From Candidatus Thorarchaeota archaeon (lineage in GTDB: Archaea; Asgardarchaeota; Thorarchaeia; Thorarchaeales; Thorarchaeaceae), in NCBI GenBank assembly GCA_019057475.1, contig DXJO01000051.1, positions 1 through 18,814 of the forward strand: DNA of 18,814 bases, read 5' to 3'. The translations under genes and the position numbers were made by a program. This document shows, piece by piece, positions 247-18,814 of the stretch (its first letter is position 1; the number at the start of each line of letters is the position of its first letter). The notes under the pieces are model-generated. The model saw only the letters and a program-made list of their open reading frames with translations. It did no database searches and was not told the DNA's origin.

Positions 247-798
247 ATGTCGAAGCAAGAGGATGTCATACCTTGGTGGCAAGGGTCCCTCGGAAAGAAA
301 CAGCTCATGTCTGCTTTCTTCTCCAAGACATGGAATAAGCTCGGCAATAGAATTACTGCGATGTGTCCAGACCACGCTCGTGACCTCTATTATTCTGCTG
401 GCCGCTTGGCCGGGGTGGAGGCACAAATGGAGTACTTCAAGATTGGAAAACGGAAGCCTCCTAGCCATTTCAAGGGCGTCGTCGAGTTGATAAAGATGGC
501 TCTTGAACGGCTCATCGTTCCTTTTGGTGATATCAAGATTGCTAAGTTACAAAAACTGTGGCAAGACGAAGAGGCAATATTCGAGATCGGGGATAACCCA
601 TATACAGCCGGGCATGAGAGCGAGGAGCCATCCTGCTATTTCCTGAAAGGATTCATTGAGGCTGTCTTCGAGTACATTACAGCCTTCAACCGTACCGAGT
701 ACGAGAAGTTGATGGTAGAAGAGGAGACCTGCATGTCAGCAGGCGGCAAATCCTGCACATTCAAGATCACCCGTGTTTCACCGCGCTGGTTGTCATGA
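247..798 (+). CDS. V4R (4-vinyl reductase) domain protein
   Basis: LYYSAGRLAG helix, PSCYFLKGFIEAVF, and C-terminal VEEETCMSAGGKSCTFKI match the V4R pattern (C...E-x2-C...G...C-x-F). Confidence 0.85.
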   Translation: MSKQEDVIPWWQGSLGKKQLMSAFFSKTWNKLGNRITAMCPDHARDLYYSAGRLAGVEAQMEYFKIGKRKPPSHFKGVVELIKMALERLIVPFGDIKIAKLQKLWQDEEAIFEIGDNPYTAGHESEEPSCYFLKGFIEAVFEYITAFNRTEYEKLMVEEETCMSAGGKSCTFKITRVSPRWLS

Positions 799-816
799 TT
801 CCGTCTGTCGTCACCG

Positions 817-873
817 TTCATTGTAGGTTGAACTAATGATACGCTACTTTAGTACTTAGTTTGTAGCAGGGAA
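817..873. repeat. 57-bp intergenic direct repeat, copy 1
   Basis: TTCATTGTAGGTTGAACTAATGATACGCTACTTTAGTACTTAGTTTGTAGCAGGGAA; ungapped 51/57 match to 3815-3871. Confidence 0.95.
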
Positions 874-1065
874 CCCACAAGACCCTCGAAGAGGGCGTGT
901 CTATTAGAGCACCCCCATGAATCTCATGACCATCCACGACTTATCACTCTAACAACACCCTTACTGACCGTCCTTGACTGCGCGTTCTGCTTCAACATGA
1001 CTCGAGCCGTCCACTGACCGACCAATGTGCCTGACCTCCTTTCTCGTCAGCCCTCTCCCTCTGGA

Positions 1066-1821
1066 CTAACTCTGCAATCTCAGGTCAAGAATATCGCACT
1101 CGACGTTGAACTCTATGTCCGCACGGTTCCTTTGTCGGTTGATGTGGTCATAGAACTCTTCATATGTTCCATAGCCAAACACACTCTCGGATGAGGATCT
1201 GGCTTCGTATTGCCAACCAGTCCTTTCTACCACGTTGAGGTCGGGGGTGTCAAAGTAAACACCTCCAGAGAAGCCATCCGGAACTGAGATGTCTAGAATG
1301 CATTCACCGCATCTGATAGTGCCTCCTATGTTGAAACCAACCTCTTCAGTCACGGTCAGTGTGAGCATACCTGAGGCGAAGTAGTCGAAAGTCTGATTCT
1401 GCGTCAAAACCCCATCATAGATGATACTCGAGTTGCAGTTCCAACACCTGAATACATACACCGAATACGCCGCGGGTCCGACAGTGATATTAAGCGATCT
1501 CACTCTCTGGGTCGTAGAGATGTCCACCCCAGCAGCCTCCGGACCTACGGTAAGCCTGTCAAACGGGTCAGCACTCCAAATTGGAACCGGGTTGTAATAC
1601 TCAATATCCATCGAGTACAAGAGTGCAGGGTCCTCACTGAACAGGATTGTGAGGTTACAGTCGCTAATTTCATGTAACAGAAGCTGGAATTTGGAAATCC
1701 CAACTGAGATTGGTTTCTCAAAATAGTATCTGGTGTCTGCCATTAAAATGACCACTCCCACTGCAGCCATGCTCACCAGCACTACTCCAGTCACGGCAAT
1801 TGCAGCAGTCCTTCGTTTCAT
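1066..1821 (-). CDS. N-terminally membrane-anchored/secreted hypothetical protein (beta-rich ectodomain)
   Basis: MKRR followed by a hydrophobic helix, then a 220-aa acidic beta-strand-like region with N-x-S/T sequons. Confidence 0.8.
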   Translation of the reverse strand: MKRRTAAIAVTGVVLVSMAAVGVVILMADTRYYFEKPISVGISKFQLLLHEISDCNLTILFSEDPALLYSMDIEYYNPVPIWSADPFDRLTVGPEAAGVDISTTQRVRSLNITVGPAAYSVYVFRCWNCNSSIIYDGVLTQNQTFDYFASGMLTLTVTEEVGFNIGGTIRCGECILDISVPDGFSGGVYFDTPDLNVVERTGWQYEARSSSESVFGYGTYEEFYDHINRQRNRADIEFNVECDILDLRLQS

Positions 1822-1889
1822 CCAGGCATCACACTACTTCTCTGCAACTGGAATCGATCGACTATCGTTCGCAGTCCAGCATCATTAGG

Positions 1890-2123
1890 ATGGAAGAACT
1901 TGCTGTTCAACTTTTCCCTTCATCTTCTTGCTCTAGTACCTACGGCGGTCTTGTGTTTGGAGTATGCGCCTTCATGCTCTTTGCAAGTGTGGGTCATCAC
2001 TACTTCCTAAGAATAGTCGAGGCCAAATGGCGTAAGAGAAGAAGACGGCGCAAGACGAAGATTGTGCTCAACCCTGAAGAGAGAGAGCTTCGGCAGTGGG
2101 CAACAAGAAAGATTGACGATTAA
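1890..2123 (+). CDS. Small single-TM membrane protein with basic cytoplasmic tail
   Basis: From ATG 1890: hydrophobic GGLVFGVCAFMLFASV segment followed by KWRKRRRRRK (positive-inside pattern). The start and whether the gene is complete are uncertain. Confidence 0.5.
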   Translation: MEELAVQLFPSSSCSSTYGGLVFGVCAFMLFASVGHHYFLRIVEAKWRKRRRRRKTKIVLNPEERELRQWATRKIDD

Positions 2124-2159
2124 GACTTTAGAGCGTAGGTCGCATCGACCGCGCGGAGT

Positions 2160-2230
2160 TGAAAAAACAAAATGAATGAAACCGATAACGAAAGAAAATG
2201 CGTGGGAGGATGAGCTAATCACATCCTCCC
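2160..2230 (-). terminator. Hairpin plus T-rich tract downstream of the 2239 gene
   Basis: Perfect 9-bp inverted repeat GGGAGGATG (2204-2212) / CATCCTCCC (2222-2230), followed on the minus strand by TTTTCTTT...TTTTGTTTTTT. Confidence 0.6.
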
Positions 2231-2238
2231 TTGATTGA

Positions 2239-3174
2239 TCACCAGAACTCCTGGGAAACAACTCCTGATCTAGATTCAAGGTCCTTGTAAAGCACTGCTG
2301 CAAAGACATAGTTAATTGCGCTGAAGAGGAGCGAACTGATGAGTACCGAAACGTACAACACGAGGGCTGGGTCATAGAAAACAAGAGGAACTAGCAGCCA
2401 CTCGAGCACTAATGCGATGACTACCAACGGGATGACCAGTAGAATCTGGCCGCCGAAGATGTGCCAGAAGTTACCTGTTGTCAGCTCCCATGCCCTCTTC
2501 ACCGAATCGATTGCACCCAAGTCCTCAGCGACAACGACTGCGCTAGTAGGACTCAGTCTTATACTGAAGTAGAGAGCCACGATAAGTCCAATCCAGATGA
2601 GAGGAAGGGCCATCAGTGTCATGATTAGGGCGGAAGAATCAACGGAAAACAAAGCATAAAAAAGGAAATACGTACCAGGGGCCGACGATCCGGAGACAAT
2701 CAATGCAAGAAGAAACTGCGCTACAATCATAGTAGATAACCTACTGAATGCAAACGAGAGACTTGTTCCCACATCAGCTTGGTGAGAGCCATAGTCATCA
2801 AGTGCGAATTTAATGCCGCCTCCAGCAAGCACAGCATTTACAACCATGCCCACGACAGTTAGCACAATTGCGATGATGATTATCTCAATAGCCATGGCTG
2901 TTGGAGCGGTAACGAATAATCCCATCAATGTGTTGATAATGTCTGCGCCTACGTAAATCAATAGGTCGAATGCAAGCGTACCGTAAAGCGCATAGAACAC
3001 CGCGAGTTGAAGCAGACTGAATGTAACTCCAATGAGGCCAACAATCAGAATATAGCTCGGTAGCTTCCGCACCCATACTTTCAACGTTCTCGTTACAAGG
3101 CCCAATGCGCTAACCATGAAGTCTTGTTCGGGGGGTGCAGAGGGCTCAAGTCCTAGTCCATCGTCGATTTCCAT
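2239..3174 (-). CDS. Multi-pass membrane protein resembling the GPDPase-membrane/DUF975-like family
   Basis: About 6-7 TM helices with the family-like motifs LSPTSAVVVAEDLGAIDSVKRAWELTTGNFWHIFG and AVLYKDLE. Start moved to ATG 3174 (MEIDD), which has GAAGGA upstream and TTATAA at 3215-3220. Confidence 0.8.
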   Translation of the reverse strand: MEIDDGLGLEPSAPPEQDFMVSALGLVTRTLKVWVRKLPSYILIVGLIGVTFSLLQLAVFYALYGTLAFDLLIYVGADIINTLMGLFVTAPTAMAIEIIIIAIVLTVVGMVVNAVLAGGGIKFALDDYGSHQADVGTSLSFAFSRLSTMIVAQFLLALIVSGSSAPGTYFLFYALFSVDSSALIMTLMALPLIWIGLIVALYFSIRLSPTSAVVVAEDLGAIDSVKRAWELTTGNFWHIFGGQILLVIPLVVIALVLEWLLVPLVFYDPALVLYVSVLISSLLFSAINYVFAAVLYKDLESRSGVVSQEFW

Positions 3175-3267
3175 CAATAGTCCTTCTAAGTGATTTTGAT
3201 GCCGAGGTGTAATCTTATAATATCTCCGCACTGAGTAGGGCAGAGGGGCGGAGTACGCGACAAGCAA

Positions 3268-3541
3268 TCATGCAGGTTTCGGCCGGGCGTCGAAGATCTC
3301 CATGAATTTCATGCCTCTTGCCTTTTCAAGAAGCTCCTCGAAGGCAATGATGACAACTTTCGGAGTGATTTCTGTGCTCTTCTTCGTGATGGAGGCGCCC
3401 CTCATGAATCAATGAGGTGAGGTCTGAATTGACGGCAGCCTTTGGAGCTACATGGAGGTTTAGCACGTCCATGCTATACGGATCATTCATGTCCTTCTTT
3501 GCCACCTCTATCTGGATGAGTTTGTGCGCTGTATCACGCTC
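3268..3541 (-). pseudogene. Frameshifted, 5'-truncated gene remnant of unknown family
   Basis: ERDTAHKLIQIEVAKKDMNDPYSMDVLNLHVAPKAAVNSDLTSLIHEG joins ASITKKSTEITPKVVIIAFEELLEKARGMKFMEIFDARPKPA* if one base is removed from the C4 run at 3398-3401. An in-frame TGA lies just upstream. Confidence 0.45.
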
Positions 3542-3559
3542 TCAAAAGATAAGAGAATG

Positions 3560-3776
3560 AAGTGAGCAGGAAACAAGAGTTTCGCGATTGGCTTCAGGGC
3601 CAGAAGGAAGGAAGATTGAACTTTTTGTGCCCTCTTATGCTCGTCCAGCTAATACCTGCAGACACAAACTCCTATCAAAAACAACGAGTTCTTATCCCTT
3701 GGTGATTGAGATACAGACAACTTTTCCAGTGGTGAACAGACTTATTATACAACTCTTACGAGTTTTCGAGATTCAT
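3560..3776 (-). pseudogene. Possible heavily degraded TPR-like gene
   Basis: ATG 3776 lies about 22 nt after a minus-strand TTTTATA (3798-3804). Broken frames give MNLENS*ELYNKSVHHWK and SQSPRDKNSLFLIGVCVCRY*LDEHKRAQKV, which resemble a TPR by eye only. Confidence 0.2.
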
Positions 3777-3814
3777 CAGGCGGAGAATTGTGAACTGTAT
3801 AAAATCGTGTGCAA

Positions 3815-3871
3815 TTCATTGTAGGTTGGACTAATGATATGCTTCTTTACTACTTAGTTTGTGGTAGGGAA
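3815..3871. repeat. 57-bp intergenic direct repeat, copy 2
   Basis: TTCATTGTAGGTTGGACTAATGATATGCTTCTTTACTACTTAGTTTGTGGTAGGGAA; 6 substitutions relative to 817-873, same orientation. Confidence 0.95.
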
Positions 3872-4072
3872 GGAGTGAGGGGGCTACCACTGGGAGGGAT
3901 GTGGGGGGCTTCGGTTGATGAAACGCCAAGAGGAGGTCTATGCCAAGCATCAAGACGAACAACGAGGTATGCCGTGAAGGTGTATTGTTCTCCCTCACCT
4001 AGGCGAGTCTAGAATCTGGAGTTAAGGGGGACCGGGTCAATCATGTGAATAATACAGTTGCCAGTGGAGATC

Positions 4073-4690
4073 CTAATCCAGTCGCCAGGTGTTCTTAGGT
4101 TGATCTGAAGGCCTCAATCTTGTCCAGAGAAGATACAATCCAAGAGGGAATATAACAACAAGAACTGGCCCGACCAAGAACCAAGGGAACTCTGATGCAT
4201 CAACAAGATTTGGCCGGCTGTAGAGAATCATTAAGGGGTACACCGATGACACGGACATATTGCCAAGGGTATCATTCGCAAAGAGCTGGACATCAAACAA
4301 GGTTTCCGTTTGGCTGACGTTGACTGTGAACCGACCATGGTAGGTGTTTCCCTCGCCTGGTGGTAGTAGACTCATTGATCGATTCGTCCAGCTAGTTTCA
4401 TTAGCACGCTTATAGCTCAACCAGACCGCGTCCACGCCATCAGGATCGTAGACATCTACATCTACTGATGGAGTGCACTGACTGTAAAATGTGGCCGTCC
4501 GGCGTGTACTATAATTTCCAAATACTGGTCCTTCGCTTGAATCCGAAACAAATGTACTCTGGCAATCATTCAGGTCTGGCATGTCACACACGACGAGTGT
4601 CTGTGGGATTACTAGAAGAATGAACACTAGAAAGACTATGCGACCATTCAAACAGTCACAACAGAGTCTGAAGGAGTACTTTGTCATCAT
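4073..4690 (-). CDS. Cell-surface protein: signal/TM, Ig-like beta-sandwich, C-terminal TM anchor
   Basis: Motifs GPVF, DPDGVDAVWLSY, WTNRSM and FANDTLGN, with C-terminal anchor FPWFLVGPVLVVIFPLGLYLLW-RLR. ATG-ATG at 4690/4687 follows the stop at 4693. Confidence 0.85.
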   Translation of the reverse strand: MMTKYSFRLCCDCLNGRIVFLVFILLVIPQTLVVCDMPDLNDCQSTFVSDSSEGPVFGNYSTRRTATFYSQCTPSVDVDVYDPDGVDAVWLSYKRANETSWTNRSMSLLPPGEGNTYHGRFTVNVSQTETLFDVQLFANDTLGNMSVSSVYPLMILYSRPNLVDASEFPWFLVGPVLVVIFPLGLYLLWTRLRPSDQPKNTWRLD

Positions 4691-4692
4691 AG

Positions 4693-5004
4693 CTACCAGC
4701 TGTTCCAACTGTACCTGAACGTGATTAAGGTCGGATGAAGCTGAAGTTCCTGCTCCCAGTCAGCCGACCAAGCATCACGAAATCCCAGCAGTAGATATAC
4801 TGTTGAATCGGTGAGATATGTGTTTCTCATCCCATTCTGTACTGCCCATTGTCCGTGGCAGCAAAACCATCCGGTTGAGGGTGATGCCGCTTCGAACCAA
4901 GCGAAATAATACTGTGAAGGAGATGAGGATCTACTGGAAATGATAACCATTCTGACATTATCTACGGATGATGCTGTTGCTTCACTATTGCAAGACCACG
5001 AGGT
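4693..5004 (-). pseudogene. C-terminal fragment of a probable extracellular protein (5' part missing)
   Basis: Frame is open from 5004 (after TAA) to a stop 2 nt before the next ATG, an operon-like spacing. It is W/Y/S-rich and beta-like (VDNVRMVIISSRSSSPSQYYFAWFE...TVYLLLGFRDAWSADWEQ) with no signal peptide or promoter space. Confidence 0.45.
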
Positions 5005-5007
5005 TTA

Positions 5008-5598
5008 ATGGAGAGTCACACATATTCTAGAATGGTGGATGTGATGGCAAGGATCTCCTTGTTGAGGATGACCGTTCTCACTTGGGTCATCCTGATGTGT
5101 GTCTCTCCTATGTGGACCAAAGAGCCACAATACTTTCTCAGGTCCTGCCATGCACTGAGCAACGGTCAGGGACCCATATTTTTAAGCTATGTAGATTCCT
5201 ATGCAGATGGATTCTCTCCTGAAACCATTATCACCTTCACAGTTGAAGATCCAGATGGAGTCGAAACTGTCATAGCCTCATACAGAAACCGGACTGAGGA
5301 TCAATGGTCTAACATCACCATGCAGGACATGGATGAGAACTCAACAAGGTCTCGTTATGCGGCCTACCTTCATATCGAAGTCCCTGAACCCGGAGTCTAT
5401 ATCTGGGATATCCGGTACGTGGCCAACGACACACTCGGTTATAGTAGTGTTTCTGATGTCATTCAGCACTCTTACGCATGGAACTGACCGGACCCCGACC
5501 CGACTCCCGTAATCATGCTGGCCTTCATTGGAGTGGGAATATTGATGGTGGTAATTGGTGTTGTTATGAAACGAGGTGTGTTGCGGCCCAAGAGTTGA
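5008..5598 (+). CDS. Cell-surface protein paralogous to 4073-4690, interrupted by an in-frame TGA at 5485-5487 (readthrough or pseudogene)
   Basis: Shares GPIF, DPDGVETVIASY, WSNITM and VANDTLG with the paralog. The same frame continues past TGA as PDPDPTPVIMLAFIGVGILMVVIGVVMKRGVLRPKS* (linker, TM, basic tail). The start may be ATG 5044. Confidence 0.8.
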
Positions 5599-5604
5599 CA
5601 AAAA

Positions 5605-5640
5605 CAAGAGGACTAGTCTGCATGCGCTGGACTGCTCTTG
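5605..5640. terminator. Stem-loop between convergent genes
   Basis: Outer stem CAAGAG (5605-5610) / CTCTTG (5635-5640) and inner stem AGTC/GACT, between the stops at 5598 (+) and 5662 (-). Confidence 0.4.
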
Positions 5641-6000: not shown

Positions 6001-6208
6001 ACATACTGACCTTGTGAAGATATGTCATTTGTGCCGCAGACGTCAGCCTTCTGCACACGCGGCGGCAGCAGGGTGATGTGTGCAAGAACATGCGGGGGAA
6101 ATCGACCCAGTTAGCTTCTTCGCGGCTTGCAGTCCGACATTCTATACAATCTCCACTGGCCCGTGACGTTGAAGCTTGTCAAACCTAATATGCTCACAAT
6201 GAGTAGCT

Positions 6209-7282
6209 ATGAGGGATGTGGCGAAGGTGTCATCGAATCAGACAGCAAAGATATTCGTCGCAGTAATCATGGTCATGGCAATTGCATCCGTCGTCTTCCT
6301 AATGACAGTCCTTGACGACACGCCGCCCGGGGGTGACACGACAACGATTGAGGGGGACACATATACGCAACATCCTCCTATCACTCTCAGGAGCAACACT
6401 GAATTTGCAAATCAGGCCGCTGAAGAAGGCTGGGAAGGTAATGGCACATCAAGCAACCCGTATCTGATTGAGAATCTCTGGATTAGAAGCGATGCAGAAT
6501 GCTTAGACATCTCAGATACCACAGTCCACTTCGTCGTAAGGAACTGCTTCTTGAGTTCCACACCTGAGTTGAGTGCAGACTGTGCGGCTATTTCGATATG
6601 CAATTCTTCGAATGCGCATCTGGAATCATGTATTGTACACTCTAATGATGATGGTATGCAGTTTTTCCTCTCCCGTGAATGTACTATCCATAACTGTACC
6701 ATCGAAGCATTATGTGCTGGTGTAAACGCCACGGAATCTCACGATCTCCGTTTTGAGAACAGCGACATACGCAACTGTACCTATGGTGCTACTATCATTG
6801 GCAGCCCGGGTGTTAATCTCTCCCAAAACAGGGTCTGTCACAACGAATGGGGTGTGCTAGCACAGTTCTCTGACTCCTGCACGTTGTGGAACAACACCAT
6901 CTCAGAGAATCAGGAAGGAGTTGACCTGCAAATCCTTTGCGCAAACTGGTCTATCCGAAACAATACAGTGTTGAACAACACGGGTGTAGGCATTAGGCTT
7001 GGTGAACAGACGGGAAACATCTCATTGGTTTGCAATCGCCTTGGTTGGAATGAAATGAGCAATGCTATAGATGATGGACTAGACAACAAATGGGATGATG
7101 GAGTGAATCAGGGCAACTACTGGAGCGACTATGATAGCACCGGAGTCCACCTAGTCCCGGGATCAGCTGGGAGTGTAGACCATTATCCTCTTCTTCTGGA
7201 AGAATCCAATGACACCACTGTTTCGGCAGCTTGGCTTCAGTCGCTCAAAGCCGGCAAACACTGGCACGATACCAGTACATGA
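6209..7282 (+). CDS. Membrane-anchored right-handed parallel beta-helix (NosD/PbH1-like) surface protein
   Basis: N-terminal TM, GNGTSSNPYLIENLWI cap, repeated NNTISEN/NNTVLNN rungs, and the C-terminal cap GNYWSDY...DHYPL. Confidence 0.9.
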   Translation: MRDVAKVSSNQTAKIFVAVIMVMAIASVVFLMTVLDDTPPGGDTTTIEGDTYTQHPPITLRSNTEFANQAAEEGWEGNGTSSNPYLIENLWIRSDAECLDISDTTVHFVVRNCFLSSTPELSADCAAISICNSSNAHLESCIVHSNDDGMQFFLSRECTIHNCTIEALCAGVNATESHDLRFENSDIRNCTYGATIIGSPGVNLSQNRVCHNEWGVLAQFSDSCTLWNNTISENQEGVDLQILCANWSIRNNTVLNNTGVGIRLGEQTGNISLVCNRLGWNEMSNAIDDGLDNKWDDGVNQGNYWSDYDSTGVHLVPGSAGSVDHYPLLLEESNDTTVSAAWLQSLKAGKHWHDTST

Positions 7283-7514
7283 TGTGTCACGATGGATGAG
7301 GCTGGCAATCAAACCAGATGTGCCATCTTCTTCCTTGACTCACACGCATGTGTCACCGAATCTAGAAACTGTGCTGACTCATTAGTTCTGACTTCTATCC
7401 ACGTATTTGTATCCTGACGCTGCCTGAAAACTGTACTAGGCAGAGAAAAGACTGCTTAAAACGTAGAATCAAATACGCTTCGGGTGCAGGTATAGGGCAG
7501 TAGCGTGTTCCACA

Positions 7515-8573
7515 ATGAGGTTGGGCAGATCAGGTTTCCTTCTCGTGTTCCTTCTAATACTATTCGTTTCTGCGGGGATCTTTGTACCTGCCTATACATA
7601 CATGATAACACGAGCTGATGCTTCGCAGATTCAGCTACCGGGGCAACCTGTGAATGAAACTGCGTTCAGCATTCTGGTCAGTCCGGAACCGGACAGTGCC
7701 ATCTTTAGGGGGAACTGGTCAACGGAGAGCCTCAGACCGTATGTGCTGAGCTACACCCCAATGGCGACTAACTTGATTAGTCAGGAAGAAGCAGTGAACA
7801 TTTCGGGGGAATTTATCCCTGCTCACTATTGGGAGTTCTTGGAATACATGCATTGGGCAGAATTGAATCCAAATCTACCTGAATGGACTATTCGATTCAC
7901 GAGTCACGTTGACGACACGGGCGGCTACGACGGACTTGTGGTACTGACCTCCGTTAATGCTTTCACTGGTCGCGTTATTCGCTATCATGTGCACTGGGAT
8001 GAGAAAGTTGATCCTGAGCTTCTTGCGCCTCCAATTGAACCAGATGGAAATCCAGGAAATCGTTCGATAATAGAAACCAGACTAGTCCAGTTTCTTGATG
8101 CCTACGGGTATTCTCTTTCTGAGGAGATGAGATTGATTGAGACCCACGCTTGGCCCAATGAAACCCATGCTGCCTCGTATAGCTTCAAGATTGCGATGCC
8201 GGTAGGCCTTGTGCTGCCTGATGAAGCAATCCAAGGGGTTGAGGCTCGGGTGGATGCTATTACAGGAGAAGTCTTGGACTTCAGCTACTTGTGTGTGGAG
8301 ATTCCTGAGTTGTCAATCGGTGGAGTCATCAATCCAGATGTTGCTTACGACTACATGATAGCAGGCGCGAGTCCTTGGTCTTCTATAGGTAAAGCAGAGT
8401 ATATTGGAGCATTTCTTCGTCTGAGGCTGATTGAGAGCACCCACTATGCCATTAGACTCCAACTCGTATGGACATTACAGCTTAAGGGAACTGACGAGGG
8501 ATGGCTGTGGGAAGTGCATAGAGATGCGTTTGATGGAGGCAGGCCGATTCCGAACCCGCACATTGTTTTTTGA
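7515..8573 (+). CDS. Secreted/anchored protein with PepSY-like repeats
   Basis: N-terminal hydrophobic helix and three PepSY-like termini: VNAFTGRVI, VDAITGEVL and LVW...RDAFDG. Confidence 0.75.
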   Translation: MRLGRSGFLLVFLLILFVSAGIFVPAYTYMITRADASQIQLPGQPVNETAFSILVSPEPDSAIFRGNWSTESLRPYVLSYTPMATNLISQEEAVNISGEFIPAHYWEFLEYMHWAELNPNLPEWTIRFTSHVDDTGGYDGLVVLTSVNAFTGRVIRYHVHWDEKVDPELLAPPIEPDGNPGNRSIIETRLVQFLDAYGYSLSEEMRLIETHAWPNETHAASYSFKIAMPVGLVLPDEAIQGVEARVDAITGEVLDFSYLCVEIPELSIGGVINPDVAYDYMIAGASPWSSIGKAEYIGAFLRLRLIESTHYAIRLQLVWTLQLKGTDEGWLWEVHRDAFDGGRPIPNPHIVF

Positions 8574-11939: not shown

Positions 11940-12833
11940 CTACTGGGTCTCAGAGGTATCGTTGAGAAATTCATCAGTATTTAGTGAACTGATCAGGATA
12001 CCCTCTGATGTCACCTTCAAGACCACACGCCGACCTATGTTTGCCAATCTACGAACGGTCTCCGGAATCACCATACGTCCTTTCGCATCAATCTCGGTTA
12101 TGTCACCGTACAGAGTGTGACGCTGACCCTCGATGAGACCATCTCTGATGTGAAGGATCCTGTCGGCGTAGGATGACACTCTTGGGTTATGGGTCACGTT
12201 TACGATGGTCGTGTCGAACTCACGGTTGCTAATCCTTAGTGCGTTCATGACCATCTCGGTGGTTTCGGTGTCAAGCTCGCCGGTTACCTCGTCAGCTAGG
12301 AGAAGCTCAGGCTTATTGGCCAGAGCCACGCATATTGCGACTCTTTGATTCTCGCCACCGGACATTTGATGGGGCTTGTGATTCATCCTATGCTGCATCT
12401 CGAAGGTTGTGAGAAGCATCTTGGCTCTCTCGTCTGAGGCTCCTTTGGGTGCTCCTGCCAACCTCATGGGCAGCTTGACATTCTTCAATGCGTTCAGGCC
12501 TGGCACCAAGTTCCCTGTCTGCCAGACAAATCCGACCTTCTGTCTGCGATACATCATAGACCGCTTGTCGTCGAGAAGCGTGAGGCTATGTCCGTCGAAG
12601 AGTATCTGTCCTGCGGTAGGCTTGTCAAGGGCACCTATCATCTTCAGGAGCGTGGACTTGCCGGATCCGCTTGGTCCTATAATGGACAGGAATTCCCCTC
12701 TCTTGACTTCAAAGTCCATACCGCGAAGAGCAATGATTTCTTTCATCCCTCGCTTGTAAACCTTCATCAGGTCTCGCACAACGACTTTATTCTCCATCGC
12801 GATTTTTTCTAGGTCTTCTGTCATGATTCTCAC
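11940..12833 (-). CDS. ABC ATPase of the LolD/MacB/FtsE type with a C-terminal AbrB/MraZ/SpoVT-like domain
   Basis: Walker A GPSGSGKST, signature MSGGENQR, Walker B LLLADE, H-loop VTH, and tail ITEIDAKGRMVIPETVRRLANIGRRVVLKVTSEGILI. Start overlaps the upstream stop (GTGA). Confidence 0.95.
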   Translation of the reverse strand: MRIMTEDLEKIAMENKVVVRDLMKVYKRGMKEIIALRGMDFEVKRGEFLSIIGPSGSGKSTLLKMIGALDKPTAGQILFDGHSLTLLDDKRSMMYRRQKVGFVWQTGNLVPGLNALKNVKLPMRLAGAPKGASDERAKMLLTTFEMQHRMNHKPHQMSGGENQRVAICVALANKPELLLADEVTGELDTETTEMVMNALRISNREFDTTIVNVTHNPRVSSYADRILHIRDGLIEGQRHTLYGDITEIDAKGRMVIPETVRRLANIGRRVVLKVTSEGILISSLNTDEFLNDTSETQ

Positions 12834-15655
12834 TCCACATATTGAATTTCTTCTGCGATGTTACGACTAAGATTCCTACGTGCAACTACGTAGGTCGTGA
12901 CCAGCGCAAAAAGGAAACTGGCACCCAGGATTGCTGTTAGCAGCAACCAGGGAACTCCCAAGATTACTGGTAATCGAGACCAACTGAGTGTCGAAGCCAT
13001 GCCGATATAGGCCAAGGGCATGTTGATCACAAGTGCAGTAAGGGCTAAGCCAATTCCTGCGCCGATTCCCGCACCGATAAGGACTCCAAATGTTGTATCG
13101 GCAAGAACAGCCAATGCAAGATTGCTTGATTGTTCGCCCAATGCTCTCAAGACTGAAAGCTGTTTTCTCATCTTTCTCACCCGCACAGCTGCAACTATAG
13201 TCATACCTGCTGTGAGGTATATGAGAGTGAAGAGCACGTTTAGTGTGTAGACACCGTATAGCGACTGTGCTGCCTTGGAATCTAGTGCTTCATCAATATC
13301 ATCCAGTGGTGTTTTCACGCTTGCGAAGCTATTGGGTGATATCGCGTGCAGGTCCGAAATCGCTTTCGTGTAGTTGTAACCGTCTTGAAGTTTAACAAAG
13401 AATTTCGTCACATGAGTTGTGTTAAGGCAGCTGTGAGCGTAATCCAAATCGATTATGATGAAATTCTGAGCCCTAGGGTCCCCTGGGAGATAGGTTGTAG
13501 CTCCTTGGTCGCTAGAAGCCATTACATCAACGATTGTGCAATCAGTCACATTATTCCACGCTGGACCCCTGATACTGAGCGTAATCTGGTCCGAGAAGAC
13601 TGGCACTGGCATCCCAAAAAGGCCGGTTAGATAGTGGTTGATGGGCTTAAAGGATGTAACAACATTGGTGTTTTCCACTGATAGCAATGGGATTGACACT
13701 TGAGGTGTGTTGTATAACGTGAAGTATGGCAACATGAATGCAGACTGTACCCATTCTTCCGGCTGCACTGCGATTACGTTGATGGATTCGTTAGCATATT
13801 CTCTGGATCCCCAACGACTCGTATAGTAGTATGCGGCGTATGCATTGAACTCAAGAGCAGCGCTTGAGTGTTCCACCCCTTCGATACTGGAGATGTTCTC
13901 CAGCATATCCAGAGTCACATTCTCAAGACCTGTCTTGACATCGATGACAACGTCTGCCCCGTCCTGAAACATGTAGAGGTCCGTCATGTGATTGTAGCCG
14001 GTAGTGGCGGAAATTGAGGCAAAGATGCCCGCTGCGAACACCATCGCAATGAACATGGTTCCCATCGCTTCGCTCTTCTTGAAGAGTCTAACAGTTCTTG
14101 CCATTATACGGACTCCCACTGTCAGTCGCGATTTCTCCATCTTTTCCAGGAATCCTGCCTTGATTCTTGATGTTGGACGTGACATCAAACGTGCCAGAGC
14201 TATCGTGAAGATTCCAAGAAGCGGTGCTGCGATCATCATGTATGCCATGTAAGATCCTATGTAGAATCCCCCAAAGGACACCATGATGAGGAGTGGCATC
14301 AGAACATAACCTGACAACGCTAATGCGAGTAATTCAATTACGGGATTACCCAACTCTTCAGCTTCAGCAAGGACCTCCCGCTCAATAACACTGTGCGCTT
14401 CAGTCGGCGTCATCAGAAGAGCTCTGACGGCTGCAGGTAATGCAACTATCAGCCCGACAATGAATGAGAACATGAAGACAATAACCACAGCTGTAGGCTG
14501 CAGCAGAATGGTTATGTCCGCAAGCTGGGTCAAGTCAAAGACCATGAGTATTCGTACAGTGCTAGAAAGAAGTGCAGCAAGAGCTCCCGTGAGGACCGCT
14601 CCTAAACTGCCAACAATGCCTGTGATAATCGCGCTGCTAAGAACCCACGTGAACGCTTGCCACCCTGATGCTCCTCTTGTCTTGAGCATCCCTATGTCTT
14701 TTCTCCGTTCATCAGCCAAAAGGTTGGAGTTATACTGAATGAGCATTATGCCCATCACAATGCTTGGGATGGAAAACGCGAGAGCGATAGCCCTCATTGA
14801 AGTGCTCCACATGGCATACTCATAAACTCCCTCGAGTAGTCCAAATCGTCCCACCATCACATAGGGAAGAGCCCTATTCTCAATTGTCTTTCTCAGGTTA
14901 TTCAGGTTTTCAAGAGCTTGTGTGGGGTCTGAAGCAATCACAGCGGTGTGATCCAGAACAACCCAGATTTTCTCTTCAACGGCGTTCCATCCAGAATATC
15001 CGCGACTTCCGAAGACATCATCAATACCTTGGCGAGTTGTGATTACACGCAGAGTTGTGTCCTCTGGTTGGTTCCAGATGATCTGTTCGAAGAATATATG
15101 GGACACGAACGTACTGGCTATTCGTAGACTATGGTTGGTCCAAATCTCAGTGCCATTGTCATCCCAGACCCAGTGTGATATTGTGTAGTTGTCACCGATT
15201 TCAAGCTCCCTGTCGATTAATGTTGTATGTTCCACGTAGCATGTATCATCTGTGAGGACAGGAGCTCCTTCATCCAACTCAATGGCTTGACTGAATGTTG
15301 TGAAGAATGACTGGTTGACGCCGAGGTATGTGTTCCTCCAGTATCTCTCGTTTTCATATATCATCCAAGAGTAATCGTTCACGACAGCAATGGTTTCTTG
15401 CTCAAGCACAGCTTCCTGTTCTGACACCATTTGTTCTATCTCTTCCATGCTGATGTCATTTTGCGCATAGAATGGATTGGTGAAGTGAATCTCCATGTCA
15501 ACCTCTACGTCGCTAGTTATGTCTGCGAAAACATACGGTCCTGCGGCGTCCATGTAGAAGAGAATCCCACCTAGGACTCCTGCAGAAAGGGAAAATACCA
15601 GCAGCGTTGTGAGTAGCTGAGGACCTCTGGATGCTAGGCGTGACAGTAGGAACAT
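12830..15655 (-). CDS. FtsX/MacB-like ABC permease (two FtsX repeats, 941 aa)
   Basis: ERRKDIGMLKTRGAS and KMRKQLSVLRALG FtsX motifs, GADV, two large extracellular loops. True start is ATG 15655, overlapping the upstream TAA (TAATG). Confidence 0.92.
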   Translation of the reverse strand: MFLLSRLASRGPQLLTTLLVFSLSAGVLGGILFYMDAAGPYVFADITSDVEVDMEIHFTNPFYAQNDISMEEIEQMVSEQEAVLEQETIAVVNDYSWMIYENERYWRNTYLGVNQSFFTTFSQAIELDEGAPVLTDDTCYVEHTTLIDRELEIGDNYTISHWVWDDNGTEIWTNHSLRIASTFVSHIFFEQIIWNQPEDTTLRVITTRQGIDDVFGSRGYSGWNAVEEKIWVVLDHTAVIASDPTQALENLNNLRKTIENRALPYVMVGRFGLLEGVYEYAMWSTSMRAIALAFSIPSIVMGIMLIQYNSNLLADERRKDIGMLKTRGASGWQAFTWVLSSAIITGIVGSLGAVLTGALAALLSSTVRILMVFDLTQLADITILLQPTAVVIVFMFSFIVGLIVALPAAVRALLMTPTEAHSVIEREVLAEAEELGNPVIELLALALSGYVLMPLLIMVSFGGFYIGSYMAYMMIAAPLLGIFTIALARLMSRPTSRIKAGFLEKMEKSRLTVGVRIMARTVRLFKKSEAMGTMFIAMVFAAGIFASISATTGYNHMTDLYMFQDGADVVIDVKTGLENVTLDMLENISSIEGVEHSSAALEFNAYAAYYYTSRWGSREYANESINVIAVQPEEWVQSAFMLPYFTLYNTPQVSIPLLSVENTNVVTSFKPINHYLTGLFGMPVPVFSDQITLSIRGPAWNNVTDCTIVDVMASSDQGATTYLPGDPRAQNFIIIDLDYAHSCLNTTHVTKFFVKLQDGYNYTKAISDLHAISPNSFASVKTPLDDIDEALDSKAAQSLYGVYTLNVLFTLIYLTAGMTIVAAVRVRKMRKQLSVLRALGEQSSNLALAVLADTTFGVLIGAGIGAGIGLALTALVINMPLAYIGMASTLSWSRLPVILGVPWLLLTAILGASFLFALVTTYVVARRNLSRNIAEEIQYVE

Positions 15656-18420
15656 TAGACATCGCCCCCGTAGGGTCCAGACTCTGCCCACGATGCATTC
15701 AGCGCTTCAGAAAGGCTCACTCTCGAACTGAGGAATGCGATTGCAAGTACGAATACAAGTATGGATGCCAAAAAGAAGACAACAATCGTTACAAGCGTAA
15801 GCCACGGAATTACTGCAAAGATGGGGACGGGGAATATGTAATTGGTGACTCGATAGGTCAGTAAAGTATTCATTATCATGAGCGGTCCATATCCGATCAA
15901 TAATCCCGTACTGATAATGGCCAAGACAAGCATCTCGGCACCTTGCGCCTTGACCACCTGGCCTGAGCTAGCCCCCATCGCCCGCAGCAATGCAATCTCC
16001 CTTTTCCTGGCTCTGAAGCCTTCTACTGCGTAGACGGTGAATGCACCGAATATGATTCCTACCATAACAACAGTGAGCATCGTATCCACTGCACGGTCCA
16101 TCTGGTAGGCTGTCATACCCAAGTACTCACTTACTTCATTTGACACGGACGCCCAGTCATCATCACCAACTACCAAATCTCCCCCGGAGCGGAGGATGTC
16201 TTCCACTAGGATTGTATCATTTACGCTGTCAATCGTCCTAACGCAGTAAACATTGCGGGCGTCTTGCTCAAGGTCAATTAGAGAAACTACATACTCGCGG
16301 TTGACCCACAAGGTTTCCGCGCCTACAGTTTGAAGCCCCCAATAGTCATGGCTGGTCGATTGCAACAGGTTGTTGGAGAGTCCTTCTGCAACACCTATTA
16401 TCGTAAATACCATGGTTTCTGAAACGTCTGAAATTGAGGTGGCTGCTCGAAGAGTGTCACCAACCGACACCTCATATTCGACTGCGATGTCATTTGAAAT
16501 GATTGCTCCAGCAAGTGTGAGCTGAAGCTCTTTGAGCATATCACCCATGTCTGACTCGTTCAAGGATTGCCCGAACTGATCGTACCCGACCTCCAGATAC
16601 TCTAGAGGGTTCATTGCTACCGCATAGACTCTGCCGCCTGTGGCCGAAAGATATAGTCTGGCCACTGAAACCAAGGTTCCAGTTTGAGTCAGTTCGTGAT
16701 TCGTGACATTCTCAATGAAATCGTTCCAGTCAGGGAGCGCGAACTCGTCCAGTCGGAATGTGACATCAGCCCCAAACGCGAACCTTGCGTGATTCATCTT
16801 GGTTAGCGGTATTGATGCTCCAATAACTGCATTATTCCACGCTAGGCTCATGGCCAAGACAAGCACGAGAGCGGCCGGTCCAGCTGAGGATGCTTCCTTT
16901 CCAATTCTTCTGATACCTACAATTGCGGGAATCTCGCCCACAACTCTTTGGAACGCTCGTGATATGAGATTCGCTCCTCGTCTCATACCTTTGATTGCAA
17001 GGCTAGCAACAGAGAGGAAGAGGGCCAAAGGGGCAACGGACAAGATTATTGCTAGGATTGGATCGTTCTGTACGGCGGTCCCACCCATATAGAGGGCTAC
17101 TAGCAGAAGCGAAGTAAGAGCAGCAACTAGAACATCCCATTTGACTATCGTGAGCCCTTTCACGATATTGGCAAGTTTGCTTGCTTTTTCCTCGTCTGAT
17201 TTCTTAGTGGAATAGACTGAGCGGTAGACTATGAATGTACTGACTGGCAAGCCTGCACCGATGACTAGAGACATCATAATCGACTCGATTGAAATGAGGA
17301 ATGGTTCTGTCCAAAGAAGAGAGAAATCAAACTCGAAGAACCCTGTAGCTGCCATAGCTACTCTGCTGACGACGGCACCTACTCCTAGGCCCACAAACGA
17401 ACTGAGGATTGAGAGTCCCACTGTTTCCCTAAATTCAATGCTTTCAATCTTCGCTTTGGCTGCTCCTCTTGAGATTAACATGTTTGACTCGAATCGTCTC
17501 TCGTTGATGTTGTGCCTGATTGCCAGAAATACCACCATGCCGGCAAGAACCACGACTCCCGCAGCTCTCAGAACCTGCGTCAATCTCATTATGAACTGCC
17601 ATGACATGAAGCCCATTATAGCATTTGAGAGACGCCCACTGACCCAGTATCGTGACCATCGGTTAGGGCTTGGATACGTGGGGTCAAGGGCTCTGATACT
17701 CTCTTCGATGCCTGCGACGTACGCTAAGGATCCTCTTGCATCAAATGGGGTGATACCTATTCTGTCAATATCAACGTGAACCTCGGTTTCTTTCCATTCC
17801 GCCCATACAATGTCAGGGTGTACGACTCCGATGCCAGAAATACTACCATATGGATTGTAGTAGGGTTCATTCGGGTCATAGTCACTACCCACATATACGC
17901 CAACAACTGTGACGGGCTTCCCTACCCGTCCAAACTCACCCCACTCTTCAGTCAGGTTCACAATGGAGCCGATGTCGACCTCAAGATGCTCATAGGTAAA
18001 CCGCGCGAGAGCAATCTCTGATGCATTGTTGGGGAAGCGTCCAACCTCGAGAATGAATACATCCGGAAAGGTGTTCAGATAGTCGCTTGTGGGTGAAAGC
18101 AGCATACCCCACCATTCAAGCAGATCGTAGCCCCCACCAACAAAGAGTACGCCATGTCGATAGTCGATGGCGGCTGCCTTCTCAACTCCTGGTATGCCAC
18201 GTATATTATCGAGCTGATTCGCAACCCCATCTCCGCCAACGGTCATAGCGATGGGCCCGATATCGATGATGCTATTCCATTCATTAACAGAGTAGGAGTC
18301 AACATAAACTGAAATGCCCATGACCATGGCAGATGCCAACAGGAAACACAGTAGCGTTACGGCCTTGCGCGGCAGGCTGTGGAATGCCTGATATCCGACG
18401 GGAACAGCAGCCATCTCCAT
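15655..18420 (-). CDS. FtsX/MacB-like ABC permease (two FtsX repeats)
   Basis: ERRFESNMLISRGA and RKREIALLRAMGAS motifs, FGADV. SD GGAGGA lies upstream and its spacing favours ATG 18414. Confidence 0.92.
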   Translation of the reverse strand: MEMAAVPVGYQAFHSLPRKAVTLLCFLLASAMVMGISVYVDSYSVNEWNSIIDIGPIAMTVGGDGVANQLDNIRGIPGVEKAAAIDYRHGVLFVGGGYDLLEWWGMLLSPTSDYLNTFPDVFILEVGRFPNNASEIALARFTYEHLEVDIGSIVNLTEEWGEFGRVGKPVTVVGVYVGSDYDPNEPYYNPYGSISGIGVVHPDIVWAEWKETEVHVDIDRIGITPFDARGSLAYVAGIEESIRALDPTYPSPNRWSRYWVSGRLSNAIMGFMSWQFIMRLTQVLRAAGVVVLAGMVVFLAIRHNINERRFESNMLISRGAAKAKIESIEFRETVGLSILSSFVGLGVGAVVSRVAMAATGFFEFDFSLLWTEPFLISIESIMMSLVIGAGLPVSTFIVYRSVYSTKKSDEEKASKLANIVKGLTIVKWDVLVAALTSLLLVALYMGGTAVQNDPILAIILSVAPLALFLSVASLAIKGMRRGANLISRAFQRVVGEIPAIVGIRRIGKEASSAGPAALVLVLAMSLAWNNAVIGASIPLTKMNHARFAFGADVTFRLDEFALPDWNDFIENVTNHELTQTGTLVSVARLYLSATGGRVYAVAMNPLEYLEVGYDQFGQSLNESDMGDMLKELQLTLAGAIISNDIAVEYEVSVGDTLRAATSISDVSETMVFTIIGVAEGLSNNLLQSTSHDYWGLQTVGAETLWVNREYVVSLIDLEQDARNVYCVRTIDSVNDTILVEDILRSGGDLVVGDDDWASVSNEVSEYLGMTAYQMDRAVDTMLTVVMVGIIFGAFTVYAVEGFRARKREIALLRAMGASSGQVVKAQGAEMLVLAIISTGLLIGYGPLMIMNTLLTYRVTNYIFPVPIFAVIPWLTLVTIVVFFLASILVFVLAIAFLSSRVSLSEALNASWAESGPYGGDV

Positions 18421-18425
18421 TCCTC

Positions 18426-18814
18426 CTACACGACGCCCTCTACCTGTCCGTCTCGCATCTTGTAGACCTTGTCCATCTGCTTGCCTACATCCGGGTCGTG
18501 GGTCACCACAATCAGCGTGCCGCCCTCGCCCTTCGTCAGGTCTATCAGAATTTTCATGATGTCTTCGCCGGTTTGCTGATCCAGATCTCCCGTTGGCTCA
18601 TCCGCGAGCACAACAACGGAGCTTGCAGCCCCCTCGGGCTTGGCGAGAGCACGGGCAATTGCCACACGTTGCTGTTCTCCTCCTGAGAGCTCGTCCGGTC
18701 TGTGTTCAGCTCTATCTGTGAGACCTACGAGTCCGATAAGATGGTCTACTCGTTCCTTTCTGGCGGTTTCCTCCACTCCTGCGATGAGCAATGGGAGCTC
18801 AACATTCTCATACG
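18426..18814 (-). CDS. ABC ATPase (LolD/MacB type), 5' part outside the window
   Basis: YENVELPLLIAG...LSGGEQQRVAIARALA...VVLADEPTGDLD...IVVTHD; frame is open to the window edge. Confidence 0.95.
   Translation of the reverse strand, partial: YENVELPLLIAGVEETARKERVDHLIGLVGLTDRAEHRPDELSGGEQQRVAIARALAKPEGAASSVVVLADEPTGDLDQQTGEDIMKILIDLTKGEGGTLIVVTHDPDVGKQMDKVYKMRDGQVEGVV

Follow-up and report, generated by a model that had tools for sequence, protein, structure and literature searches.

What is the identity of a 57-base-pair (bp) repeat that occurs twice, in the same orientation, around a 3-kb gene block of a Candidatus Thorarchaeota archaeon? The repeat, labelled here R57, lies in an 18,814-nucleotide (nt) stretch of DNA (the window), which is the complete 18.8-kb contig C33 (GenBank DXJO01000051.1) of a 3.34-Mb assembly that is 96% complete (GCA_019057475.1, genome G000). 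A first-pass annotation had suggested that R57 could be the recombination site of a new cassette system, a miniature inverted-repeat transposable element (MITE)-like element or a member of a small-RNA family. The present analysis supports the MITE-like option: with a probability of roughly 60%, R57 forms the extreme right-end (RE) module in a narrow-clade family of short, protein-less elements (R57 plus a downstream module, D', ∼ 90–220 bp) akin to insertion sequences (IS) that carry large TnpB-like genes. The proposal of a novel site for the recombination of a 3-kb cassette is not supported.

A terminal motif in common with TnpB-like genes and miniature elements

The two copies of R57 (817–873 and 3815–3871) are direct repeats, identical at 51 of 57 positions without gaps and 2998 bp apart, just as first described. 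When the second copy was compared with the whole assembly a BLAST E value of 1.6e-15 was obtained, which across 3.34 Mb means that the match is not due to chance. The sequences that flank these copies are indeed unrelated, with no visible target-site duplication (TSD), and copy 1 does lie between convergent open reading frames (ORFs), at 247–798 on the plus strand and 1066–1821 on the minus strand. The repeat is also non-coding, as had been claimed, since the 78-amino-acid (aa) ORF at 3588–3824, which extends into copy 2, is interrupted by frame shifts or stop codons in the other copies. More generally, a coding role for R57 and its neighbouring upstream modules U1 and U2 was rejected, because the 78–81-aa ORFs found there are without frame conservation.

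The identity of R57 is indicated by its first 20 bases which, on the opposite strand, are the RE tip (...TACAATGAACGG/T, where the slash marks the element boundary) of large TnpB-like genes and of miniature elements. The tip is read on the minus strand of the window, where the shared terminal 20 nt are GTCCAACYTACAATGAACGG/T. Its carriers are ∼ 17 miniature elements and four large TnpB-like genes, three of them intact and one truncated. At the four TnpB-like loci (on contigs C42, C39, C53 and C54) the motif sits just past the stop codon of the opposite-strand ORF; all four ORFs end in ...C..C...HADxNAAxNI...SAVPGRT, followed by ...ACAATGAACGG/T. As the motif directly follows these ORFs, the plus-strand start of R57 is taken to be the reverse complement of a TnpB IS tip, ...GTCCAAC(C/T)TACAATGAACGG/T. 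The first-pass annotation had itself set the remnant of a known IS end against its cassette proposal, and the sequence does carry the end of the genome's TnpB-type elements.

The motif is widespread in the genome. The 24-mer at 813–836 matches ∼ 15 other element termini, thirteen of which belong to a family of 192-nt elements with sharp ends; others form a second miniature subfamily. When up to two mismatches are allowed, the 15-mer GTTCATTGTAGGTTG occurs 29 times, compared with ∼ 6 occurrences expected (our own arithmetic from sequence space), and 23 of the 29 are at recognisable element termini. The large TnpB-like proteins match Pfam PF07282 (Cas12f1-like TNB domain) and score below the cutoffs of the NCBIfam guided_TnpB and Cas12f2 models; the RuvC/TNB match is restricted to the C-terminal ∼ 230 aa, and Pfam gives none for the N-terminal ∼ 450 aa. 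Over 200 homologues were detected, and of the sources that name a taxon almost all give Thorarchaeota.

The 192-nt elements are shown to be mobile. Five related genomes were compared, among them the Thorarchaeota genomes G001, G004 and G005, and these three contain clean empty sites for two of the elements. The empty sites read CTATTAAGGG/TGCCCG and CCTAGTGG(A)/TAGTATT, and the occupied sites ...GG/GTTGCAAAC...CAATGAACGG/T; reduced to their ends, an occupied site is GG/GTTGC...GAACGG/T and an empty one ...GG(G)/T.... Inverted repeats are absent, as is any duplication apart from an ambiguous GG. Elements of the IS607 family, which are moved by a serine transposase, insert at a (G)GG target, carry GG at both tips and have neither a TSD nor terminal inverted repeats (TIRs) (Chen et al. 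2018, eLife, PMC6188088). The 192-nt elements likewise insert at GG without TSD or TIR. Moreover, the unit that contains copy 1 (813–1034) is bounded by CC...CC on the plus strand, that is, by GG on the minus strand. This unit occupies 221 of the 267 bp that separate the two convergent stop codons, and so fills the intergenic gap as a small insertion would.

The same sharp boundary is found in the related genomes, where every R57 copy opens at ACC/GTTCATTG beyond an unrelated flank and continues through D'. Six copies (window copy 1; those on contigs C59, C176 and C172 of G005; and those on C5 and C129 of G001) start at (A/G)CC/GTTCAT after five different flanks, one flank being common to G005:C59 and G001:C129. 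The flank that is abutted by the R57 unit in these two contigs is abutted by a 192-nt element in G000:C7. Furthermore, one R57-type end in G005 is shown to border an insertion whose site is empty in G000. On G005:C172 the flank ...ACTACC/GTTCATTG leads into R57 and D', compared with an uninterrupted ...ACTACC/CTTCTTC at G000:C19:74254. This insertion is several kb long, and its far side, on G005:C122, reads ...GTTACTACC/CTTCTTC, a left end of the 192 type; G001:C215 is arranged in the same way as this far side.

Two further observations concern the 192-nt elements. On the tnpB strand, their left half has a strong match to a TATA box (CTTTATATAG), which precedes the RE tip by ∼ 110 nt, so that these protein-less elements could express their own guide RNA. 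In addition, an older 192-nt element (∼ 82% identical) lies at G000:C45:55533–55723, next to a paralogue of the V4R-domain gene of the window, and this arrangement is present in four genomes of the genus, the orthologous sites being on G001:C66, G004:C64 and G005:C1.

Modules around the repeat and the 3-kb block

The possibility that only the two window copies exist, raised by the first-pass annotation, is contradicted by five clear copies in the genome: the two in the window and those at C40:4565, C10:443 and C49:10906. A decayed copy is present at C21:106459–106523, and five more copies were found in G001 and G005; in all, at least six copies lie outside this genome, in three other Thorarchaeota genomes. 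An exact-pattern scan of species-representative genomes confined the R57 motif to three Thorarchaeota metagenome-assembled genomes (MAGs), and the same type of scan returned 0 matches in Joint Genome Institute (JGI) metagenome contigs.

Examination of these copies defines the extent of the unit. In C40, C10 and C49, R57 sits between U2 upstream and D' downstream, and C10:617–245 is collinear with positions 3652–3871 and then 819–1019 of the window. Copy 1 of the window has D' and lacks U2, and copy 2 has U2 and lacks D'; since each keeps one neighbouring module, the 57 bp are the mere overlap of two differently truncated units. Both R57 and D' also occur broken at GGGAA. The idea that R57 had inserted at GGG/T into an element with D' only was rejected, as it predicts a GG/TTCCC junction and copy 2 shows CC/TTCCC. 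Beyond D', the segment 926–1034 holds two or three direct repeats of the CTTMCACTGACCRTCC type, which are also present in the C49, C51, C21 and G005 copies.

The U2 module ends in ...AATGTGAACTGTATAAAA followed by 10–12 variable nt, and each of its eight copies here adjoins an RE tip, as U2 does in G001; three different element bodies follow the 20 nt shared after it. In U2-linked copies the terminal CGG is replaced by TTG, CTG, CAG or CCG. Read on the minus strand, these copies consist of the tip, ∼ 19–20 variable nt and a conserved GTTCAC(A)TTTT. This succession of conserved, variable and conserved segments would fit an archaeal promoter that reads into R57 on the plus strand, and also a minus-strand RNA tail, a 19–20-nt guide and a T-run. 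In a third reading the U2 junction may be a head-to-tail join of two elements, U2 being the left end of the tandem copy, but it is without the GG that the IS607 rule demands.

The repeat had been proposed to bracket a 3-kb gene block. Physically it does so, but the block is not a recurring unit: only 2004–3834 recurs, and in other contexts. This segment is found at 88–90% identity on C12, G001:C215 and G005:C172, with shorter matches elsewhere at 80–84%; in the alignment with G001:C215:796–2638 (88% identity) a 192-nt element stands in place of R57. The gene at 1066–1821 has no counterpart in any of the genomes searched. The expectation that the repeats mark synteny breakpoints was borne out, within a mosaic of surface- and membrane-protein genes, and R57 marks only two of the many module boundaries in the window. 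The coordinates of the individual features are collected in Table 1.

Table 1. Features of the window, and the TnpB-like genes elsewhere in genome G000 that carry the same right-end (RE) tip
Feature	Position	Strand	Description
V4R-domain gene	247..798	+	ORF and domain match
R57 copy 1 with ACCG junction	813..873	-	Minus-strand end ...GTTCAACCTACAATGAACGG/T is the conserved RE tip
D' module	874..902	-	CCCACAAGACCCTCGAAGAGGGCGTGTCT, 5-bp hairpin with GAA loop; follows R57 in 9/10 copies, three genomes
Type-B extension of D	903..1034	-	Modular, breakpoint near 926; direct repeats CTTMCACTGACCRTCC
251-aa ORF	1066..1821	-	N-terminal hydrophobic anchor; no Pfam match; no DNA-level paralogue; outside recurrent module
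Recurrent module	2004..3834	-	342-aa polytopic membrane-protein gene (2239–3267), U1, U2 and first 20 nt of RE tip
U1 module	3652..3732	.	Common to C10, C12, C11 and relatives; travels with 342-aa gene
U2 module	3733..3814	.	…AATTGTGAACTGTATAAAA plus 10–12 variable nt; directly abuts RE tip in every genomic copy
R57 copy 2	3815..3871	-	Broken at GGGAA, without D'; tip ...CAATGAA/TTG instead of ...CAATGAACGG/T
Large TnpB-like genes	C42:185750–187888, C53:6986–9286, C54:171708–173867		711–766 aa
Truncated TnpB-like copy	C39:68846–69748		

The whole contig is a patchwork of segments that are ∼ 90% identical to pieces of C12, C40, C49, C21, C38 and C55. The segments are 88–93% identical to other, often small, contigs and include 2004–3771 (C12), 4011–4844 (C40), 4977–5609 (C49), 6137–7289 (C21) and 12333–18814, the last of which matches the entire 6482-bp contig C55. 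Two origins are considered for this mosaic: surface-protein genes with widespread segmental paralogy, or DNA of a second strain that was binned into the MAG and may account for part of it. The ends of the window contig (1–131 and 18688–18814) are 97–100% identical to the ends of C32, C16, C11, C22 and C43, and of C29, which indicates that the assembly breaks at repeats here. An array of gene modules is also seen at G005:C59:1–9563, where 9.5 kb of modules are 84–94% identical to scattered G000 pieces (C21, C49 and C33); D-type repeats separate some of them, and an R57 tip closes the array at a conserved chromosomal flank. Within the window, the ORFs at 6209–7282 (right-handed beta-helix/NosD) and 7515–8573 (PepSY/YcdB-like) are consistent with a region that is rich in secreted or surface proteins.

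Structure, mechanism and alternative explanations

The dyad symmetry described in the first-pass annotation is only partly retained. A 5-bp stem between ACTAA and TTAGT does exist, whereas the bases further inside the 11-bp arms that had been proposed do not pair. This stem, with 19 nt between its arms, is the sole pairing present in all copies; it adjoins the tip tail and is retained in 10/10 R57 copies, and its only change, from U-A to U.G, is tolerated on the minus strand only. When the dyad was modelled on the minus strand together with a possible crossing helix, 92.7% pairing and no covariation were found. In contrast, the RE of the TnpB genes and miniature elements, read on the tnpB strand, forms two hairpins with compensatory changes in 5/12 pairs, followed by a conserved unpaired tail of ∼ 17 nt. 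R57 shares this tail and nothing else; with 0 compensatory pairs, compared with 5/12 for the TnpB and miniature ends, it does not display the structure of an omega-RNA (reRNA, right-end element RNA). The small-RNA-family option is neither supported nor excluded by the absence of compensatory pairs in R57. A scan of the window with Rfam (E ≤ 1) gave no match, and ARAGORN gave no tRNA. By eye, a C/D-box small RNA was rejected because the C-box-like AATGATA is without a D box (CUGA) at a suitable distance. An attC site was likewise rejected by eye: GTTGRAC fits GTTRRRY, but the RYYYAAC partner is missing, and one half-site per 57 nt is about what chance provides.

If R57 is the RE module of a protein-less element, then its tip would act in cis, as the place where strands are exchanged, at the terminal GG, by a transposase that is provided in trans. 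In a minus-strand transcript the tip would form the 3' tail of an omega-RNA-like RNA and the adjacent flank would serve as the guide, which for copy 1 would comprise the last bases and the 3' flank of the V4R gene. Once the element had left, its site could be cut again by a TnpB that is produced from another locus, which would favour retention of the element. Copy 1 (813–1034) would represent a complete unit lodged between the convergent genes, and copy 2 a fragment fused to U2 that is probably immobile, as its terminal GG is lost. The two window copies are not the opposite ends of a single cassette.

Several observations weigh against this assignment. The link between R57 and TnpB consists of the terminal 20 nt only, and the remaining 37 nt of R57, like D', match no TnpB gene 3' end in the genome. 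The minimum-energy fold of neither strand beats those of shuffled sequences (z −0.6 to −0.8 for copy 1), and an RNAalifold analysis of R57 plus D' in ten copies gave a covariation term of +0.52 with 0 compensatory pairs. Four of the five genomic R57 copies lie beside U2 with an altered terminal GG, which a simple insertion model does not predict. No whole R57 unit was found to be present in one genome and absent from another, no clear left end was found, and D is mosaic. The empty site of the window copy was not found among the five relatives, as the V4R flank has no close orthologue there (neither this flank nor the gene at 1066–1821 has an orthologue of ≥ 85% identity); for a D-only copy on C51, the flanks in the relatives proved to be mosaic. 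Some of the 'copies' on small contigs may be alleles of a co-binned strain. Finally, a search of the genome found neither a Y1 TnpA (Y1_Tnp) nor Cas1, and the cognate transposase was not found.

Two Resolvase matches are present in the genome. One of these, at C19:34772–35434, lies beside a 709-aa TnpB-like ORF, and the two together (G000:C19:31885–35434) form an IS607-like pair with the resolvase-type gene upstream. The C19 resolvase is disfavoured as the missing transposase because BLASTP shows no relationship of the neighbouring ORF to the proteins of C42, C53 and C54, and because the ends differ. Moreover, the RuvC-III motif of the 709-aa ORF reads HHNAA where HADxNAA is expected, and so this TnpB-like protein may be inactive.

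The constant adjacency of the RE tip and U2 invites a different explanation, in which 814–3814 is one mobile unit with R57 plus D as its right end and U2 as its left end, copy 2 being the right end of the next unit in a head-to-tail array, and such arrays shuffle membrane and surface genes between strains. Indeed, U2 (...GTGTGCAA) resembles the left-end tip ...GTTTGCAAC, and the genes of the block lie on the strand that matches tnpB in autonomous elements. The G005 insertion has the same layout (R57-D'...cargo...342-aa gene-U1-U2/next element, bounded exactly by ACC/G and ACC/C), and the 9.5-kb mosaic array of G005:C59 ends in an R57 tip. This cargo-carrying transposon is nevertheless unlikely: the junction of U2 and tip is without the GG that a clean IS607-type tandem insertion leaves, only 2004–3834 recurs and it has neither R57 nor D at its other side, the likeness of U2 to a left end spans only ∼ 10 nt, and the missing V4R orthologue makes an empty site unavailable. 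The related proposal that units with R57-type right ends and U2- or 192-type left ends shuffle surface and membrane modules by inserting side by side at GG, in strain-variable, integrase-free arrays whose junctions are policed by large TnpB nucleases that take their guide from the RNA tail of each right end, would agree with both the G005 insertion and the array on G005:C59, and is regarded as equally doubtful. The pattern within U2 could instead be that of a promoter, with a TATA box ∼ 21 nt upstream of the repeat and with R57-D' forming the start of a plus-strand leader or regulatory RNA. The TATAAAA lies at a fixed distance, the conserved-variable-conserved pattern is typical of archaeal promoters, and in C40 and C49 U2-R57-D' is followed, after ∼ 70 nt, by a same-strand ATP-binding cassette (ABC) transporter operon. 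However, neither U2 nor a TATA box lies upstream of window copy 1 or of the copies in related genomes, window copy 2 precedes a convergent gene and not a plus-strand gene, U2 is found in front of 192-nt elements as well, in antisense orientation, and G001:C5 keeps the ABC genes behind R57 despite lacking U2. A promoter and 5' leader is given a low probability.

No greater weight is attached to the idea that R57 is an inert scar, a decayed fragment spread by segmental duplication or homologous recombination among paralogous intergenic regions and without present function. The patchwork of ∼ 90% identical segments in the window, the breaks of R57 and D' at GGGAA and the loss of the terminal GG from copy 2 would all be consistent with such decay, yet a sharp, identical boundary in ten copies with unrelated flanks, conservation of the tip among otherwise unrelated elements and insertion polymorphism at an R57 end argue against it, and this explanation too is improbable. 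The core site of a tyrosine recombinase (dif-, att- or attC-like) in an integron-like cassette system, which was the leading suggestion of the first-pass annotation, is strongly disfavoured. Direct copies do surround a gene block, and the gene content nearby is mosaic. The inverted arms, however, are of 5 bp and not ∼ 11 bp, the block is not a unit elsewhere, and the flanks make each window copy half of a longer unit. Of 8 Phage_integrase (PF00589) matches in the genome, sought as a possible nearby XerA or integrase, none is on C33, C10 or C49, near C40:4.5 kb or less than 10 kb from the copies. The empty sites of related elements, moreover, keep only GG/T and no core site.

Comparison with known systems

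Integron attC sites and chromosomal cassette arrays resemble the present locus in having direct repeats between short, strain-variable gene modules. The locus differs from them in lacking an integrase, an R''/R' pair and any imperfect palindrome as large as attC. A second parallel is provided by the protein-less derivatives of TnpB transposons, which include the palindrome-associated transposable elements (PATEs) of the IS200/IS605 family and mini-elements that consist of omega-RNA only. Such miniature elements, like those described here, are short, non-coding, multicopy and polymorphic between strains, and keep their ends together with a right end that encodes the guide RNA. The R57 body, in contrast, bears no relation to the scaffold of the omega-RNA in autonomous elements and is without covariation, the genome has no Y1 TnpA, and R57 is often fused to U2.

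The U2-linked copies recall the Asgard aCas1-TnpB loci, in which tnpB is followed by a variable stretch that has a conserved T on one side and the motif GTTCAC... on the other (Altae-Tran et al. 2023, PMC10691335). Cas1 was not found in this genome and no tnpB gene is adjacent; the likeness, namely a tip followed by ∼ 19–20 variable nt and GTTCAC(A)TTTT, rests on a 6-nt motif. With respect to the IS607 family (PMC6188088), the elements of this genome differ in having no linked serine transposase and in the size of their TnpB-like proteins, which have a large N-terminal part without a Pfam match and fall below the NCBIfam TnpB cutoffs, and the R57 unit shares only its last 20 nt. In common with that family they lack TIR and TSD, have a (G)GG target and GG tips, and have a TnpB gene that reads toward the right end; they also have short repeats near the ends, which are typical of IS607-family elements and with which the CTTMCACTGACCRTCC repeats at 926–1034 may be compared.

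Overall, a candidate new cassette recombination system is replaced by a testable identity, that of an end module of TnpB-associated mobile DNA. Were the cargo-carrying transposon to prove correct, the repeats would help to explain how Asgard archaea exchange genes for secreted and membrane proteins. As the end module proposed here, R57 would add a second body, unrelated in sequence, to the miniature elements of a large Thorarchaeota TnpB family, and since only the last 20 nt are common to the two, this tail is the part most likely to be recognised by the transposition or guide-RNA machinery.

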